From: Dokdonia sp.
GTDB lineage: Bacteria > Bacteroidota > Bacteroidia > Flavobacteriales > Flavobacteriaceae
Reading direction: 5' to 3'
NCBI GenBank assembly: GCA_020630915.1
Contig: JAHDIF010000010.1
Span: forward strand, 30,210-94,209
DNA: 64,000 nucleotides
Under the pieces are notes generated by a model, which saw only the letters and a program-made list of their open reading frames with translations, made no database searches and was not told where the DNA came from. Positions within the stretch are counted from its first letter, which is position 1. Each line of letters opens with the position of its first letter. Below are positions 13,119-62,219 of the stretch, piece after piece. The position numbers were made by a program, and so were the translations under genes.

Positions 13119-13192
13119 TGTCTGGTCGAGCGCAGTCGAGACCTAAAGATTAGGAATAATTCATAAACCTCTCGACTGCGCTCGAGGGGACA
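13119..13192. repeat. Inverted REP-like doublet (TCGAGCGCAGTCGAGA / TCTCGACTGCGCTCGA, 28-nt spacer)
   Basis: Perfect 16-bp inverted repeat at 13126-13141 and 13170-13185, plus outer tgtc/gaca. Confidence 0.85.
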
Positions 13193-13200
13193 GTTGCTTA

Positions 13201-14217
13201 TTAAAATGCACTTTTAAACTGCTCTAGAAAGCGTAAGTCGTTTTCACTTAGCATTCTAATATCTGGAATTTGGTGTAGTAGTAATGCAATACGGTCGATA
13301 CCCATCCCAAAGGCAAAACCACTGTACTCTTTACTATCAATACCACAGTTTTCAAGCACGTTAGGATCTACCATACCACAACCCATAATTTCTAGCCAGC
13401 CTGTGCCTTTCGTCATACGATAGTCTGTCTCAGTTTCTAAGCCCCAATATACGTCTACCTCTGCACTAGGCTCAGTAAATGGAAAGTAGGACGGGCGCAA
13501 GCGTATCTTACTTTTCCCAAACATTTCTGTTGTGAAGTATTGAAGGGTTTGCTTTAAGTCTGCAAAACTTACGTCTTTGTCTATATACAATCCTTCCACT
13601 TGGTGAAAGAAACAATGTGATCTACCACTTATCGCCTCGTTGCGGTATACCCGCCCTGGTGAAATGGTACGTATGGGCGGTTTGTTATTTTCCATATAAC
13701 GTACCTGCACAGATGAGGTGTGTGTTCTTAAAAGAACATCTGGGTCTGTTTGTATAAAGAAGGTATCCTGCATATCTCGCGCAGGGTGATATTCTGGTAA
13801 GTTAAGTGCCGTAAAGTTGTGCCAGTCGTCTTCTATTTCTGGTCCTTCGGATACGTTGAAACCTATTCTAGAGAAAATATCTATAATCTGATTTTTTACA
13901 ATAGAAATTGGGTGACGAGCACCTATTTCTATAGGGTCTCCAGGTCTGGTAAGATCGCCATACTCTCCTGCATCATCCGTATCTTCTAATGTCTCCTTGA
14001 GTAAAGTTACTTTTTCGAGTGCTGCTGTTTTGAGTTTATTTACAACCTGACCGTATTCCTTTTTAAGCTCGTTAGGCACATTGCGAAACTCTGCCATGAA
14101 ATCATTTACAATCCCTTTTTTACCTGAGTATTGGATTCTAAAAGCTTCTACTTCTTCAAGTGTACTGGCTTTAAAGGCTTCTACTTTTGCAATGTGTTCT
14201 TTGATTTTATCTAGCAT
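13201..14217 (-). CDS. pheS: Phenylalanine--tRNA ligase alpha subunit
   Basis: HPARDMQDTF, LRTHTS, FHQVEG, YFPFTEPSAE, GFAFGMGIDR. Confidence 0.98.
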   Translation of the reverse strand: MLDKIKEHIAKVEAFKASTLEEVEAFRIQYSGKKGIVNDFMAEFRNVPNELKKEYGQVVNKLKTAALEKVTLLKETLEDTDDAGEYGDLTRPGDPIEIGARHPISIVKNQIIDIFSRIGFNVSEGPEIEDDWHNFTALNLPEYHPARDMQDTFFIQTDPDVLLRTHTSSVQVRYMENNKPPIRTISPGRVYRNEAISGRSHCFFHQVEGLYIDKDVSFADLKQTLQYFTTEMFGKSKIRLRPSYFPFTEPSAEVDVYWGLETETDYRMTKGTGWLEIMGCGMVDPNVLENCGIDSKEYSGFAFGMGIDRIALLLHQIPDIRMLSENDLRFLEQFKSAF

Positions 14218-56311: not shown

Positions 56312-56325
56312 GCTTTCGCGAAAGC
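56312..56325. repeat. Iterated palindrome in the probable 5' UTR
   Basis: Exact match, 16 bp with flanks. Confidence 0.95.
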
Positions 56326-57750: not shown

Positions 57751-59046
57751 ATGAAAACAGGACTCGTATGGTTTCGTAATGATTTACGTAGCGAGGATAA
57801 CGTGTCGTTATCACGAGCAATCCAAGATTGTGACCGTGTGATAGGTATTTATTGTTTTGACCCAAGGCAGTTTGTTGTAGGAGATTTTGGCTTTAAAAAA
57901 ACGGAGAAATATAGAGCACAATTTTTAATTGAAACTGTCGTAAACCTTAGATACAAATTAGGTAAGCTCAATATCAGCCTAGTCGTAGTTCACGACCTTC
58001 CAGAAAATGCGGTTCCTCAGCTTATTGAGGAGCAAGATATAACAGCACTCTACTCGCAAAAAGAATGGACGGAAGAAGAAAACAAAGTAACGAAGGCAGT
58101 AGAAACCGTAATCAATATTCCTCATCACGCGCAATTCGATCAGTTTTTATTTCATCCAGATGATATTCCTTTTGAGAGTGTTCGGGACATTCCACAAGTA
58201 TTTACGCAGTTTAGAAAAAAATGTGAGAAAGAAAGTAGCGTTCGGGATGAGCAGCTAGACAATAAAAAATTACCAGAGAGCAACCTCATTGAAAAGGCTT
58301 CTCAAATACCAACTTTGGAGGATTTAGGATTGGATCGTTTTGAAAAAGATAGTCGCACAGCCTTCCCTTGGAAGGGTGGACAGGATGCTGCTTGGGAGCG
58401 TCTCAACGATTATTTCTGGAACACCGAAAAATTGGCCTATTATAAAAAAACACGTAACGGTCTTGTAGGTAAAGATTACAGTTCGAAGTTTTCTGCGTGG
58501 CTAGCAAACGGTTCTATATCAGCCCGTCAGATATATTGGGAGGTGAAACGGTTTGAAAGCCAAATCAAAAAAAATCAAGACACCTATTGGCTCATTTTTG
58601 AACTCATCTGGCGAGATTATTTTAAATATGTCTCGCTCAAGCACGGAAATGATCTCTTTAAAATAGGAGGTATTTTACATAAAGAATACGACTGGAAACA
58701 TAATGATAAAGCCCAGAGAGATTGGATCAACGGCAATACCAAATATGATTTTGTAAACGCAAATATGGTCGAGCTTAAGGAAACGGGCTGGATGAGTAAT
58801 CGTGGTAGGCAGAACGTGGCTAGCTTTTGGGCAAAAGAGCTAGAGCAAGACTGGCGAGTGGGAGCAGCCTATTTTGAAAGTATGCTTATAGACTACGACG
58901 TGCACAGCAACTGGGGCAACTGGATGTATAATGCAGGTGTAGGTAATGACCCTCGTGACCGTAAATTTAATATAGAAAGACAGGCACAAATGTATGATGG
59001 TAATGGCACGTTTGTGCGGTTGTGGTTGCAGGAGAAGCTGTTTTAA
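57751..59046 (+). CDS. DASH family cryptochrome
   Basis: VWFRNDLR, YKKTRNGLVG.DYSSKFSAWLANG, GWMSNRGRQN, GVGNDPR. Confidence 0.93.
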   Translation: MKTGLVWFRNDLRSEDNVSLSRAIQDCDRVIGIYCFDPRQFVVGDFGFKKTEKYRAQFLIETVVNLRYKLGKLNISLVVVHDLPENAVPQLIEEQDITALYSQKEWTEEENKVTKAVETVINIPHHAQFDQFLFHPDDIPFESVRDIPQVFTQFRKKCEKESSVRDEQLDNKKLPESNLIEKASQIPTLEDLGLDRFEKDSRTAFPWKGGQDAAWERLNDYFWNTEKLAYYKKTRNGLVGKDYSSKFSAWLANGSISARQIYWEVKRFESQIKKNQDTYWLIFELIWRDYFKYVSLKHGNDLFKIGGILHKEYDWKHNDKAQRDWINGNTKYDFVNANMVELKETGWMSNRGRQNVASFWAKELEQDWRVGAAYFESMLIDYDVHSNWGNWMYNAGVGNDPRDRKFNIERQAQMYDGNGTFVRLWLQEKLF

Positions 59047-59146
59047 AATCAGGTAGGACGTAAGACTACTAACCAGTAAGTACAGCTTGTTTAGCCTTAC
59101 ATCATAACCAAAAAGAATTTAAATTCTAATACTAAAAAATTAATCT

Positions 59147-60706
59147 ATCAAAACCCTTAGACTACTACTCGGCGATCAACTTAATCATCAGCATTCTTGG
59201 TATGAAGATACTAATGACGAGGTGATTTATTTTATGGCAGAGATGCGCCAAGAGACCAATTATGTAAAACATCATATTCAAAAAGTAGTGGCCTTTTTTC
59301 AAGCAATGCGGGAGTTTGCAAGTTGGCTTAAAGAGCGTGGGCATACGGTAATTTATTACAGGTTAGACGATAAAAAAAATACAGGAGATTTAGTCAAAAA
59401 TCTTGAAGCTCTAATCAAAAATCACGGTATACAGCGGTTTGAATATCAAATGCCTGATGAGTACCGACTGGATGAAATGTTAGAACGCTTTCGCGAAACT
59501 TGTGCTGAGCGCAGTCGAAGTGGCGTCTCCATTCCCACCGAAGTATGCGACACCGAACACTTTATGACCACCCGTACCGAGCTTGCCGAATTTTACGAAG
59601 GCAAAAAGCAGTACACCATGGAATATTTCTACCGTATGATGCGTAAGAAATACGACCTGATGATGATAAACGATAAAGACCCCGAAGGTGGCAAGTGGAA
59701 TTTTGACCATAGCAATCGCAATAAGTGGAAGGGCGATGTAGAGATACCTCATGAGCGTAGTTTTAGGAAAGATGTGACCGAGATTGTGGAGCTGCTAGAA
59801 AAGGAAGATGTCGAGACAATGGGAAATATAGATGCGAAGCAGTTTAGCTGGCCTACAAGTCGGGAAGATGGGCTTTCTGTTTTGAACTACTTCTGCAAAA
59901 ACTTGTTAGTACATTTTGGCGATTATCAAGATGCGATGGATCCGGAAGAGGCCTATTTGTTTCACTCGAGACTGAGCTTTGCGATGAATAGCAAGTTGCT
60001 CTCTCCGCAGGAAGTGGTAGAAACTGTGATAGGATACTGGCGTGAGCATCAAGATGAGATAGACATCAGCCAAGTAGAAGGATTTGTAAGGCAAATTATA
60101 GGCTGGCGAGAATATATGCGCGGGATGTACTGGATGCAGATGCCCGCTTTCGCGAAAGCAAACCACCTAGAAAACCACAACAAACTCCCTGATTTTTACT
60201 GGACAGGTGAGACAAAAATGAATTGCCTTAAATGCAGTATAAACAATAGCCTAGATAATGCCTATGCTCATCACATACAGCGATTAATGGTGACAGGCAA
60301 CTATGCTTTACTTACGATGACAGAACCTAGTGAGGTAGATGCGTGGTACTTGGGAGTGTACATAGATGCGATTGAGTGGGTAGAAATCACAAACACACGT
60401 GGGATGTCACAGTGGGCAGATGGTGGTAAAATCGCGACCAAGCCTTACGTAAGTAGCGGTAGTTACATTAATAAAATGAGTAATTATTGCAAGGCTTGTC
60501 ACTATAAAGTGAGTAAGAAAACAGGCGAAGATGCCTGCCCTTTTAATAGTTTATACTGGAATTTTATAGACGAAAAGCAAGAGTATTTTAGAAATAACAG
60601 GCGTATGAGTATGATGCTCAGTTTGCTCAATAAAATGGAGAAAGAAACTCTTGCCACCCACAAAGAACGTGCAGACGACATCATAAAACACCCAGAAAAC
60701 TATTAA
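59147..60706 (+). CDS. phrB: PhrB/CryB-type FeS cryptochrome/(6-4) photolyase; conserved N-terminus begins at an ATC codon
   Basis: LLGDQL upstream of the track start, [20 protein letters not shown], four cluster cysteines (NCL, YCKAC, ACP). Confidence 0.88.
59487..59526. repeat. Palindrome copy interrupted by a 24-bp REP-like unit (ACTTGTGCTGAGCGCAGTCGAAGT) inside phrB
   Basis: GCTTTCGCGAAA...GCGT; GAGCGCAGTCGA shared with 13126-13141. Confidence 0.75.
60146..60159. repeat. Iterated palindrome in phrB (AFAKA)
   Basis: Exact match, preceded by CCC as in the REP arm. Confidence 0.95.
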
Positions 60707-62219
60707 ACCCGAGGTAAACATAGTATGGTTAAAACGTGACTTGCGATTGCAAGATCACTTGCCCTTGTACAATGCGCTTCAAGAGGATAGACCCCTATTG
60801 TTGCTGTATGTTTTTGAGCCTTCGTTGCTAGAAGATGATCACTACAGTGAGCGACATTTTAATTTTATAAGGGAGTCCCTACGTGATGTGCAGCGTCAAC
60901 TTTTGGAGCACAATTCACAGGTACTTATTGTTCAAGGTGAGGCGGTTGACGTATTTAAAACCTTGATTGAACGTGTAAAAATTCACACTGTTTTCTCGCA
61001 TCAAGAGACTGGATTAAAAATCACGTATGATCGCGATCTGGGATTGGAAGCTTTCGCGAAAGCGTTAAAAACCCAATCTCCAGAAAAAAAGTTTGGTTGG
61101 GTAGAGTTTATGAATAACGGCGTGCAACGCGGCCTCAAAAACCGAAAAGGTTGGGTAGGCGACTGGGAGTGGTTTATGAAACAGCCACAACTGTCTTTTG
61201 AGCCTAAGCTAGGACAACTTTTAAAGGTTGAAAAAGTACAAGCGCTAGCACAGCACTTTGAAATCCCTTCGTTAGAAACACCTGAGAATACTCCTTTTCA
61301 AAAAGGAGGGACACACACTGGCTTGAGATATTTACACTCCTTTTTAGAGGGTGAACGGTATAGAAACTATAGCAATCATATTTCAAAACCGTTGCTAGCA
61401 AGAAAGAGTTGTTCTAGGGTTTCACCGTATATCGCTTGGGGTAATTTGAGTGTTCGGCAGGTGTGGCAAGCGGCTAAATCCTTTAGGGCACAGTCTAAAA
61501 ACAAACGCGCCATTGACGGATTTACTTCACGATTACGCTGGCAAGCACATTTTATTCAGAAGTTTGAGATGGAAGATACGATGGAATTTGTGAGTGTAAA
61601 TAAAGGATATCATCACCTAAAGAAACCTAGAAATGAAAGCTATCAAAAAGCTTGGAGAGAAGGAAAGACGGGTTACCCTCTGGTAGATGCATGTATGCGA
61701 TGTCTCAATGAGACAGGATACCTAAACTTTAGGATGCGCGCGATGACCCTATCTTTTTTTACACATAATTTATGGCAACCTTGGCAAGATGCATCACATC
61801 ACCTTGCGCAGCAGTTTCTAGATTTTGAGCCGGGAATACACTATCCTCAAATCCAGATGCAAGCGGGAGAAACGGGTATCAATATGTTGCGTATTTATAA
61901 TCCTGTAAAAAATAGTGAAGAGCACGATCCAGAAGGCGTTTTTATTAAAAAATGGGTGCCAGAACTAGCCGAAGTACCACTGGCATATATACATAAGCCA
62001 TGGACTATGAGTGTCTTGGAACAGCAATTTTGTAACGTTAGTATAGGTGCAGATTACCCAGACCCTCTTATTAATATTAAAGAAACAGCAAAGCATGCTG
62101 GAGATATACTCTGGGAACTTAAAGAGAATACACTAGTAAAGCAAGACGCCTATCGTATCTTAAAACGCCACACGCTGGCTGATAGAAAAGTATGGGATGA
62201 GCCAGAAGAGACGAGATAA
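60702..62219 (+). CDS. DNA photolyase/cryptochrome family FAD-binding protein; conserved N-terminus begins at an ATT codon
   Basis: [12 protein letters not shown] lies upstream of the track's TTG; [41 protein letters not shown]. Confidence 0.88.
61050..61063. repeat. Iterated palindrome in the photolyase gene (AFAKA)
   Basis: Exact match. Confidence 0.95.

Follow-up and report, generated by a model that had tools for sequence, protein, structure and literature searches.

A 24-nt dispersed repeat, probably mobilised in trans, splits an iterated palindrome within the Dokdonia photolyase gene phrB

The 64,000-nucleotide (64-kb) stretch of Dokdonia sp. DNA analysed here (contig JAHDIF010000010.1, positions 30,210 to 94,209 of the forward strand; hereafter the window) carries a photolyase-family gene, phrB, in which a 24-nucleotide (24-nt) repeat unit interrupts one copy of the 14-mer palindrome GCTTTCGCGAAAGC. 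Positions 59485-59526 read ACGCTTTCGCGAAA-CTTGTGCTGAGCGCAGTCGAAGTG-GCGT, hyphens marking the junctions, and deletion of 59499-59522 yields the perfect 18-base-pair (18-bp) palindrome ACGCTTTCGCGAAAGCGT, both as given in a preliminary description of this DNA. The unit sits at 59499-59522, between A12 and G13 of the 14-mer, and no target base is duplicated or lost at the junction. The parts of the locus are the following.

59147-60706, + strand: phrB, a cryptochrome/photolyase gene of the PhrB/FeS-BCP type, 519 codons counted from ATC, with PF04244 hits; host of the insertion
59485-59498, + strand: left half of the split 18-bp palindrome, ACGCTTTCGCGAAA, comprising nt 1-12 of the 14-mer plus AC; intact at the orthologous site of relatives L002/L003
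59499-59522, + strand: inserted 24-nt unit CTTGTGCTGAGCGCAGTCGAAGTG, which together with the split Ser codon encodes T-CAERSRS-G
59499-59502, + strand: tag at the 5' end of the unit, four unpaired nt ahead of the stem, reading CTTG here and CCTG in other copies, with GTCA or GTTC in their place in other subfamilies
59503-59506, + strand: 5' arm of the stem, TGCT; across the family, positions -1 to -4 pair with +1 to +4
59507-59518, + strand: conserved 12-nt loop or core GAGCGCAGTCGA, also present at 13128-13139 (+) and 13172-13183 (-)
59519-59522, + strand: 3' arm of the stem, AGTG, taking part in the same family pairing
59523-59526, + strand: right half of the split palindrome, GCGT, comprising nt 13-14 of the 14-mer plus GT

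Because the end bases of the insert differ from the neighbouring target bases, its boundaries are unambiguous. An alternative extent, 59498-59521, had been put forward in the preliminary description; it is disfavoured because the empty sites of relatives have the perfect palindrome. The eight added codons proposed there (TCAERSRS) hold as a net gain of eight residues, with one refinement: the palindrome encodes RFRES, its Ser codon is split, and the insertion turns S into TCAERSRSG. With its 24 nt, the unit preserves the reading frame of phrB, and five of its own six frames are open, the +1 frame alone having a stop (TGA). Within the window, the 24-mer CTTGTGCTGAGCGCAGTCGAAGTG occurs once.

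Relatives of this PhrB come from Dokdonia-like Flavobacteriaceae. An alignment of 28 PhrB proteins shows that orthologs are typically 511 amino acids (aa) long, against 519 aa here, with an eight-residue gap exactly at the insert (ERFRES--------VSIPT), the unit and its residues being missing from 25 of the 28. This is the gap that had been anticipated, and the intact palindrome expected in close strains was found as well: L002/L003 (86-88% aa identity), the nearest lineage without the insert, carry ACGCTTTCGCGAAAGCGT uninterrupted at the phrB site. A 97% identical relative (P0002) has the insert in its PhrB as the window does, and the same 24 nt are present in L004, an independent assembly of a 97% identical strain. 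In a neighbour-joining tree, the window and P0002 are sister to the empty P0003/P0005, and all contigs of about 97% or more identity that span the site contain the insert. Separately, the same phrB palindrome harbours a different-looking 24-bp extra, encoding the eight residues VTNPKNSG, in P0006 (L001:9940-10060). It matches the unit at 10 of 24 positions and has the same ...AGTG-GC end, and may be a strongly decayed unit. A common origin with the window's insert was rejected, as P0006 belongs to a distant clade whose other members are empty; judged by this phylogeny, the two extras are independent events.

Mapping of the insert onto a structure model, as had been suggested, placed it at a surface loop. 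The AlphaFold model of PhrB has a mean predicted local distance difference test score (pLDDT) of 68.9, and of about 90 in the N-terminal domain. The insert residues, 118-125, extend helix 106-121 and run into a loop (123-127) with pLDDT below 50, which is followed by strand 131-134. The extra residues are thus predicted to lie in a poorly ordered surface connection between helix and strand of the N-terminal alpha/beta domain. The closest solved relative, the (6-4) photolyase 7ykn (E = 2.5e-162), has a gap at this position in the alignment. A separate six-residue insert, AEGTHW, is present in ortholog P0015 a few residues downstream of the palindrome site (alignment columns 134-139), so that the helix-to-strand connection evidently tolerates insertions and deletions.

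The target of the insertion is itself a repeat. The palindrome GCTTTCGCGAAAGC has 19 exact copies in the 64 kb, and 21 matches with up to two mismatches against 0.21 expected from shuffled sequence. The window contains 3.0 copies per 10 kb, and 98 kb of Dokdonia-like loci contain 2.7 per 10 kb; 1.66 Mb of other loci, by comparison, yielded two copies. Long open frames account for 12 of the 19 copies, with each of the three phases represented (AFAKA, RFRES, LSRK), and the palindrome is also found between genes. At the RFRES and AFAKA sites, alignments of orthologs are free of gaps. The intact copies in the neighbourhood of the split one and the remaining copies are these.

60146-60159, no strand: intact 14-mer within phrB itself, encoding AFAKA
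61050-61063, no strand: intact 14-mer within the next photolyase gene, AFAKA
56312-56325, no strand: intact 14-mer, from the exact-match scan
Other 16 exact copies, starting at 1658, 2688, 5395, 10415, 14299, 18317, 21389, 22592, 25025, 27601, 30873, 31470, 37077, 41731, 45608 and 49302

By analogy, GCTTTCGCGAAAGC is a highly iterated palindrome specific to Dokdonia-like Flavobacteriaceae, a flavobacterial counterpart of the cyanobacterial HIP1 (GCGATCGC). Like HIP1, it is a palindrome, hugely over-represented in coding and non-coding DNA alike, which arises without insertions or deletions in alignments and serves as a landing site for a mini-repeat; unlike HIP1, it is 14 rather than 8 nt long and limited to Dokdonia-like Flavobacteriaceae. 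Neither GCTTTCGCGAAAGC nor GAGCGCAGTCGAAG was found in the literature searched, nor was any paper combining a highly iterated palindrome with Flavobacteri*.

The same unit splits other copies of the palindrome, as a genome search proposed in the preliminary description was meant to reveal. When species genomes were scanned with the 18-mer core, at least 120 stretches matched. Among the matches listed, the uncultured Dokdonia genome L057 contains GCTTTCGCGAAA-CCTGTGCTGAGCGCAGTCGAAGTA-GC twice within 8 kb, the unit beginning with CCTG and ending with GTA, directly followed by GC. One of the two lies in frame, in antisense, in an aromatic amino acid hydroxylase gene (...DNSA-TSTALSTG-FAKAV...), which makes PhrB and this hydroxylase two conserved proteins with in-frame insertions, the unit being in sense orientation in phrB. 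Orthologs of the hydroxylase measure 582, 590, 598, 606 and 614 aa, that is 582+8n, and their variants at the site are no insert, TSTALSTG, TSTTLGIG, TSTMLGIG, TSATLNTG and a 16-residue double insert. The empty alleles (L246, L248) show an intact CCGCTTTCGCGAAAGCGG; the unit is pristine in L057 and decayed, at 19/24 matches, in L247 and L245, the latter carrying a second 24 nt in tandem. A further site, intergenic and upstream of the hydroxylase gene, contains the unit in L246 (18/24), while L245 and L248 are empty there; it is one of two intergenic sites with a split palindrome in Dokdonia relatives. Finally, in the two sequencing runs that contain the entire window sequence, four other contigs of the source sample (depth 6.2-9.0, against 8.4 for the phrB contig) match the window only from 59485/7 to 59525/6, a span that consists of the palindrome halves plus the unit, while their flanks are unrelated.

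Read in + orientation, the unit is preceded by GAAA and followed by GC at each of these sites. Insertion at GAAA^GC in GCTTTCGCGAAAGC (the caret marking the junction) was seen at four distinct sequenced sites, three of them with empty counterparts, in addition to the four source-sample contigs. Insertion is site- and orientation-specific, recurrent, and occurs both in genes and between them. The hydroxylase tree, where P0124 is precisely empty inside an otherwise occupied clade, calls for at least two gains, or for one gain plus a precise loss; on the former count, a single site would have been targeted at least twice independently. The series of partly matching copies shows, in part, that after insertion the unit decays by substitution, like ordinary sequence.

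Several minor observations were made at these sites. In two old, decayed copies (L246:7097-7138 and L001:9971-10012), the 5' tag CYTG has become GCGG or GCGT and a complete 14-mer is restored beside the insert, which hints that some mutational or selective force may regenerate the palindrome. The hydroxylase gene (L057:3684-5534 on the - strand, L245, L246) has another in-frame insert that derives from a repeat; its 16 residues, SPPPSPLPKGE..., are encoded by a hairpin-type repeat, CCCCTCCC-AAAA-GGAGAGG, and it is present in some orthologs only. The palindrome is also split in other ways, as noted about 130 nt upstream of the hydroxylase start in L057, at L057:2817-2860 and at L015:340-400. 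In one of them, a roughly 35-nt insert lies near the centre of an L057 palindrome and ends in ...GTCCAAGTA-CGAAAGC; in another, a subfamily has the form GGAG+TTTATGCTGAG...GTCGAAGTR, followed by CGAAAG(C/T).

Beyond Dokdonia, the unit is widely dispersed. A metagenome scan with CYTGTGCTGAGCGCAGTCGAAGTR gave more than 120 stretches with the exact 24-mer among the matches listed, and the 125 listed copies whose flanks are complete represent at least 99 distinct contexts, in loci with GC contents from 0.29 to 0.59. Taking the genome and metagenome scans together, the exact 24-mer is found in hundreds of unrelated loci. Among the matches listed, the named genomes that contain it belong to Flavobacteriaceae, Bacteroidales, Fibrobacter and the Nostocales cyanobacterium Komarekiella, hence to Bacteroidota, Fibrobacterota and Nostocales (L050, L064 and L094 for the last). 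In 39% of the contexts, a perfect inverted repeat of at least 5 bp flanks the unit within 6 nt, against 6% in a control with re-paired flanks; examples are a terminator-like hairpin (L153) and a 16-bp stem (L231). The notion that the unit sits nearly always at a hairpin apex was rejected on these figures. The remaining contexts are other repeat units, coding sequence, or ambiguous. The unit occurs in the loop of CGTC-type repetitive extragenic palindromes (REPs), as in a rumen type GTCATGCCCGCCGGAG-unit-AGCGGGCATCTCC, also written GTCATGCCCGCCGGAG-unit-AGCGGGCATC; within ATTACGA heptamer repeats in Komarekiella (L094); and within itself (L222, L226, L149, L189, L193), up to three deep (L222, L226), with the inner copy usually between outer loop positions 6 and 7 (L222, L226, L149, L189). 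Head-to-tail tandem arrays of period 24 are present in metagenome contigs of unrelated organisms (L180, L221, L211, L213).

The architecture of the family emerges from another 53 copies of GAGCGNAGTCGA, in whose selection the search patterns had no part. Positions -1/+1 to -4/+4 are Watson-Crick paired in 87-98% of them, with all of CG, GC, AT and TA represented, and the family therefore has a short, variable stem of 4-5 bp around a conserved 12-nt loop, GAGCGNAGTCGA. Its members usually carry a 5' tag of 4-5 nt. The phrB subfamily combines the 4-nt tag CYTG, a 4-bp stem and the conserved loop GAGCGCAGTCGA; the stem pairs of the phrB copy are T-A, C-G, G.T and T.G. Folded alone, the 24-mer has no significant structure (z = -0.15). 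An Rfam scan (E <= 1) of eight loci containing the unit or doublets of it found no matching family; hairpin look-alikes such as AaHKsRNA41 were discarded as sub-threshold (54 bits against a gathering score of 97). A side observation concerns seemingly diverged orthologous coding sequences that have the exact unit at the same position (L138 and L210 against L228; L154 and L174 against L205 and L240). Their flanks differ mostly at apparent third-codon positions and the unit is identical at 24/24, which would reflect either recurrent insertion or constraint, with ascertainment biased by the exact-copy search pattern.

Within the window, the family is also represented near pheS (13201-14217, - strand).

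13119-13192, no strand: REP-like inverted doublet with 23-nt arms TCGAGCGCAGTCGAGA, 87% complementary, and a 28-nt spacer, immediately 3' of pheS

The preliminary description had noted sequence shared between the insert and this doublet (at 13126). The shared part is the 12-mer GAGCGCAGTCGA, the conserved loop of one repeat family, which lies in both arms (13128, +; 13172, -) and has four matches in the window with at most one mismatch, against 0.04 expected. As DNA, the doublet folds into a 74-nt hairpin of -24.4 kcal/mol (z = -6.6) and probably acts as a terminator or stabiliser. Its architecture is that of doublets in Hymenobacter; doublets of the core family occur in the window and in Hymenobacter, and the copies inside palindromes are singlets.

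A comparison with known systems places the unit between several of them. The closest precedent, by analogy, is found in the small dispersed repeats (SDRs) of Nostocaceae (Elhai et al., 2008, Genome Res 18:1484, as cited in PMC4390886 and PMC5861425). According to these two later reports, the 21-nt SDR5 enters HIP1 at one precise point, between its nt 3 and 4, and SDR-like repeats are absent outside Nostocaceae. SDR units are 21-27 nt long, and ours, at 24 nt, is likewise dispersed, in at least 99 distinct contexts; as with SDR5, insertion into a highly iterated palindrome is precise and off-centre, here at nt 12/13 of the 14-mer. Elhai and colleagues reportedly described, in 2008, SDR copies that nest in themselves and embed in heptamer repeats, a pattern that the self-nested copies of L222 and the heptamer-embedded copy of L094 resemble. 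In contrast to the SDRs, the host phylum here is Bacteroidota (Flavobacteriaceae), the target palindrome is another and longer one than HIP1, the 24-mer is found in several phyla, and insertions are documented in frame within proteins, together with their empty sites. The literature searched contained no newer work on SDRs.

The unit resembles GTAG/CGTC REPs and REPINs in being a short stem-loop with a tag of four unpaired nt on its 5' side (PMC3733652; Bertels and Rainey, 2011, PMC3116915). Inverted doublets, known from those systems, exist for the core family, at 13119-13192 of the window and in the CGTCATGCTGAGCGCAGTCGAAGCATC pairs of Hymenobacter. As Di Nocera et al. (2013, PMC3733652) describe, certain REP families are nested in palindromes of other kinds or lie in genes, and CGTC-tagged REPs occur in Bacteroidetes, without a known transposase. 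In the latter, stems of 8-9 bp enclose loops of 4-5 nt (PMC3733652), whereas the stem is 4-5 bp and the conserved loop 12 nt here; the tag is CYTG instead of GTAG or CGTC, although a Hymenobacter subfamily does carry CGTCA. Compensatory variation in the stem is a further likeness, even if the stem is only 4-5 bp long and contains G.T and T.G pairs in the phrB copy. Two of the Rickettsia palindromic elements (RPEs), RPE-4 and RPE-6, correspond to CGTC REP families (PMC3733652). Like RPEs, the unit is a repeat that lengthens conserved proteins in frame by a peptide segment, at surface positions where this is tolerated. An RPE measures roughly 100-150 bp and is restricted to Rickettsia; our unit differs in being 24 nt long, aimed at a second repeat family and spread across phyla, with a flavobacterial host. 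Elements of the IS200/IS605 type (TnpA, Y1/HUH) also insert without target-site duplication, in a fixed orientation, next to a defined sequence and with the help of DNA hairpins. They differ from the single 24-nt unit in needing two different hairpin ends, and they insert 3' of a conserved tetra- or pentanucleotide, none of which is common across taxa here; in Dokdonia-like genomes, the unit is always 3' of GAAA. The principle is shared with SDR5 and HIP1, and what differs is the phylum, the palindrome, the architecture of the unit, its exact conservation across phyla, and the in-frame protein insertions with empty sites.

We consider it very probable that 59499-59522 is a dispersed mini-repeat of SDR/REP type that was inserted into an existing copy of GCTTTCGCGAAAGC, presumably by a mobility enzyme provided in trans. 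Such an enzyme, specific for a site or a structure, would recognise both the unit and a palindromic or hairpin target, cut the latter at GAAA^GC and join the unit in. Among known chemistries, a single-strand reaction of HUH/Y1 type (RAYT, IS200/IS605-like) would fit best because of the absence of target duplication, the fixed orientation and the dependence on hairpins. The earlier proposal that the 14-mer is the target of a second mobile repeat is upheld by the intact empty site and by the splitting of other palindrome copies by the same unit. Its corollary, that the two families are tied together, stands in that the palindrome is a target, and needs widening in that the unit is also found in other hairpins, in REP-type units and in itself in other taxa.

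A number of points weigh against this interpretation. Unlike the case of IS200/IS605, no conserved tetranucleotide precedes the unit across taxa, and one structural rule is not obviously general because the unit in the palindrome lies 2 nt from the end of the 3' arm and not in a loop. No presence/absence polymorphism was found at the phrB site among contigs of about 97% or more identity, so that current activity is unsupported. No mobilising enzyme was identified in a scan of the three open reading frames beside the doublet, which are pheS and two without Pfam hits. Some contexts, for instance the rumen type, are probably composite repeats that spread as a whole, and independent insertions may therefore be fewer than contexts.

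In a broader form of the proposal, the unit and the stem-GAGCGNAGTCGA family would constitute a pan-bacterial, self-nesting mini element directed to hairpins and palindromes, kept identical by a conserved enzyme, and captured by the 14-mer of Dokdonia-like genomes. We offer this extension tentatively, and judge it somewhat more apt to fail than to hold.

A dedicated transposase would be unnecessary if the unit had entered once, as a passenger, and had then spread and been lost among the roughly thousand palindromes by template switching or gene conversion, with the palindrome halves as microhomology. Copying of the composite would give the identical junction and orientation seen in every occupied palindrome, reverse conversion would explain the precisely empty P0124 within an occupied clade, and only the composite 59485-59526 is common to the source-sample loci. 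Nevertheless, site-specific bases are kept right beside the junctions (CCGC..GCGG against ACGC..GCGT, and a GTTTTC variant in L057b), which would leave a left half with about 9-12 nt of usable homology and a right half with only 2 nt (GC). Copy-choice of this kind also leaves unexplained why, in other phyla, the exact 24-mer lies inside itself, inside other REP units and in unrelated hairpins, and we regard it as unlikely.

Alternatively, an RNA intermediate might carry copies of the unit to hairpins, in transcripts or in DNA, where reverse transcription would fix them. An RNA-mediated route is said to have been favoured for SDRs by Elhai and colleagues in 2008. It would accord, weakly, with the G.T found at one or two stem positions (TGCT/AGTR), as G.U pairs would form in + strand RNA only, and with the many copies in transcribed, terminator-like hairpins such as L153. 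Against it, also weakly, the unit is in sense in phrB and in antisense in the hydroxylase gene, which gives no consistent relation to transcription, two genes only being concerned; in addition, no link to a reverse transcriptase and no matching Rfam RNA family were found. Such a route seems to us improbable.

Palindromes are known as fragile sites, and the 14-mer (centre TCGCGA) might have been cut by a nuclease, or broken as a cruciform or hairpin, and patched with filler DNA templated by an ectopic repeat. The different-looking 24-bp extra of L001 and the roughly 35-nt insert near the centre of another L057 palindrome could be read in this way. Repair of this kind would be expected to leave variable ends, whereas the boundaries are invariant and the insert measures precisely 24 nt wherever it occurs, other phyla included; the L001 extra is moreover compatible with a decayed unit, given its 10/24 matches, its ...AGTG-GC end and the 18/24 intermediate of L246. 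We accord this explanation very little credence. That there was no insertion at all, the extra being an assembly artefact or an eight-residue loop arisen in place under selection on PhrB, has in its favour only that the region tolerates insertions and deletions (the six-residue insert of P0015 lies nearby), and can be dismissed in view of the same sequence in independent assemblies (L004 and contigs of four runs), the exact 24-mer in hundreds of unrelated loci and the intact palindrome at the empty site.

How repeats of 20-30 nt move has been a question since the cyanobacterial description of 2008, and the phenomenon was thought to be confined to one family. The insertion described here indicates that a mini-repeat lands at a fixed step of a palindrome also in a phylum distant from the cyanobacteria, and in a different palindrome; the exact copies in several phyla point to a conserved recognition machinery. 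The empty and occupied alleles, together with a decay series at several sites, make rates and direction measurable. At 24 nt and open in five of six frames, the unit is a ready source of eight-residue protein insertions, and the proteins that have gained eight residues include a DNA-repair photolyase and an aromatic amino acid hydroxylase. Should the pan-bacterial element prove real, two repeat systems would be generating eight-residue protein insertions, as in the hydroxylases of 582+8n residues, and a culturable system would be available for dissecting the mobility of 'very small mobile elements', Dokdonia and its relatives being cultivable.

Two further observations concern phrB and its surroundings. 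At the position of the ATG of its orthologs, phrB has ATC, and the next ATG, GTG or TTG lies 25 codons downstream (window 59147-59221). These first 25 codons are open and conserved, with synonymous changes, in three lineages (the window, L004 and L002; 86-100% identity), which suggests a conserved non-canonical ATC start; the versions of these PhrB proteins produced by gene callers are cut to 486-490 aa. Lastly, phrB (59147-60706) is the middle one of three cryptochrome/photolyase genes in a row, lying between a DASH-type gene (57751-59046) and a class I-like gene (60741-62219), and the same arrangement (57751-62219 in the window) is found in the relatives L001 and L002.

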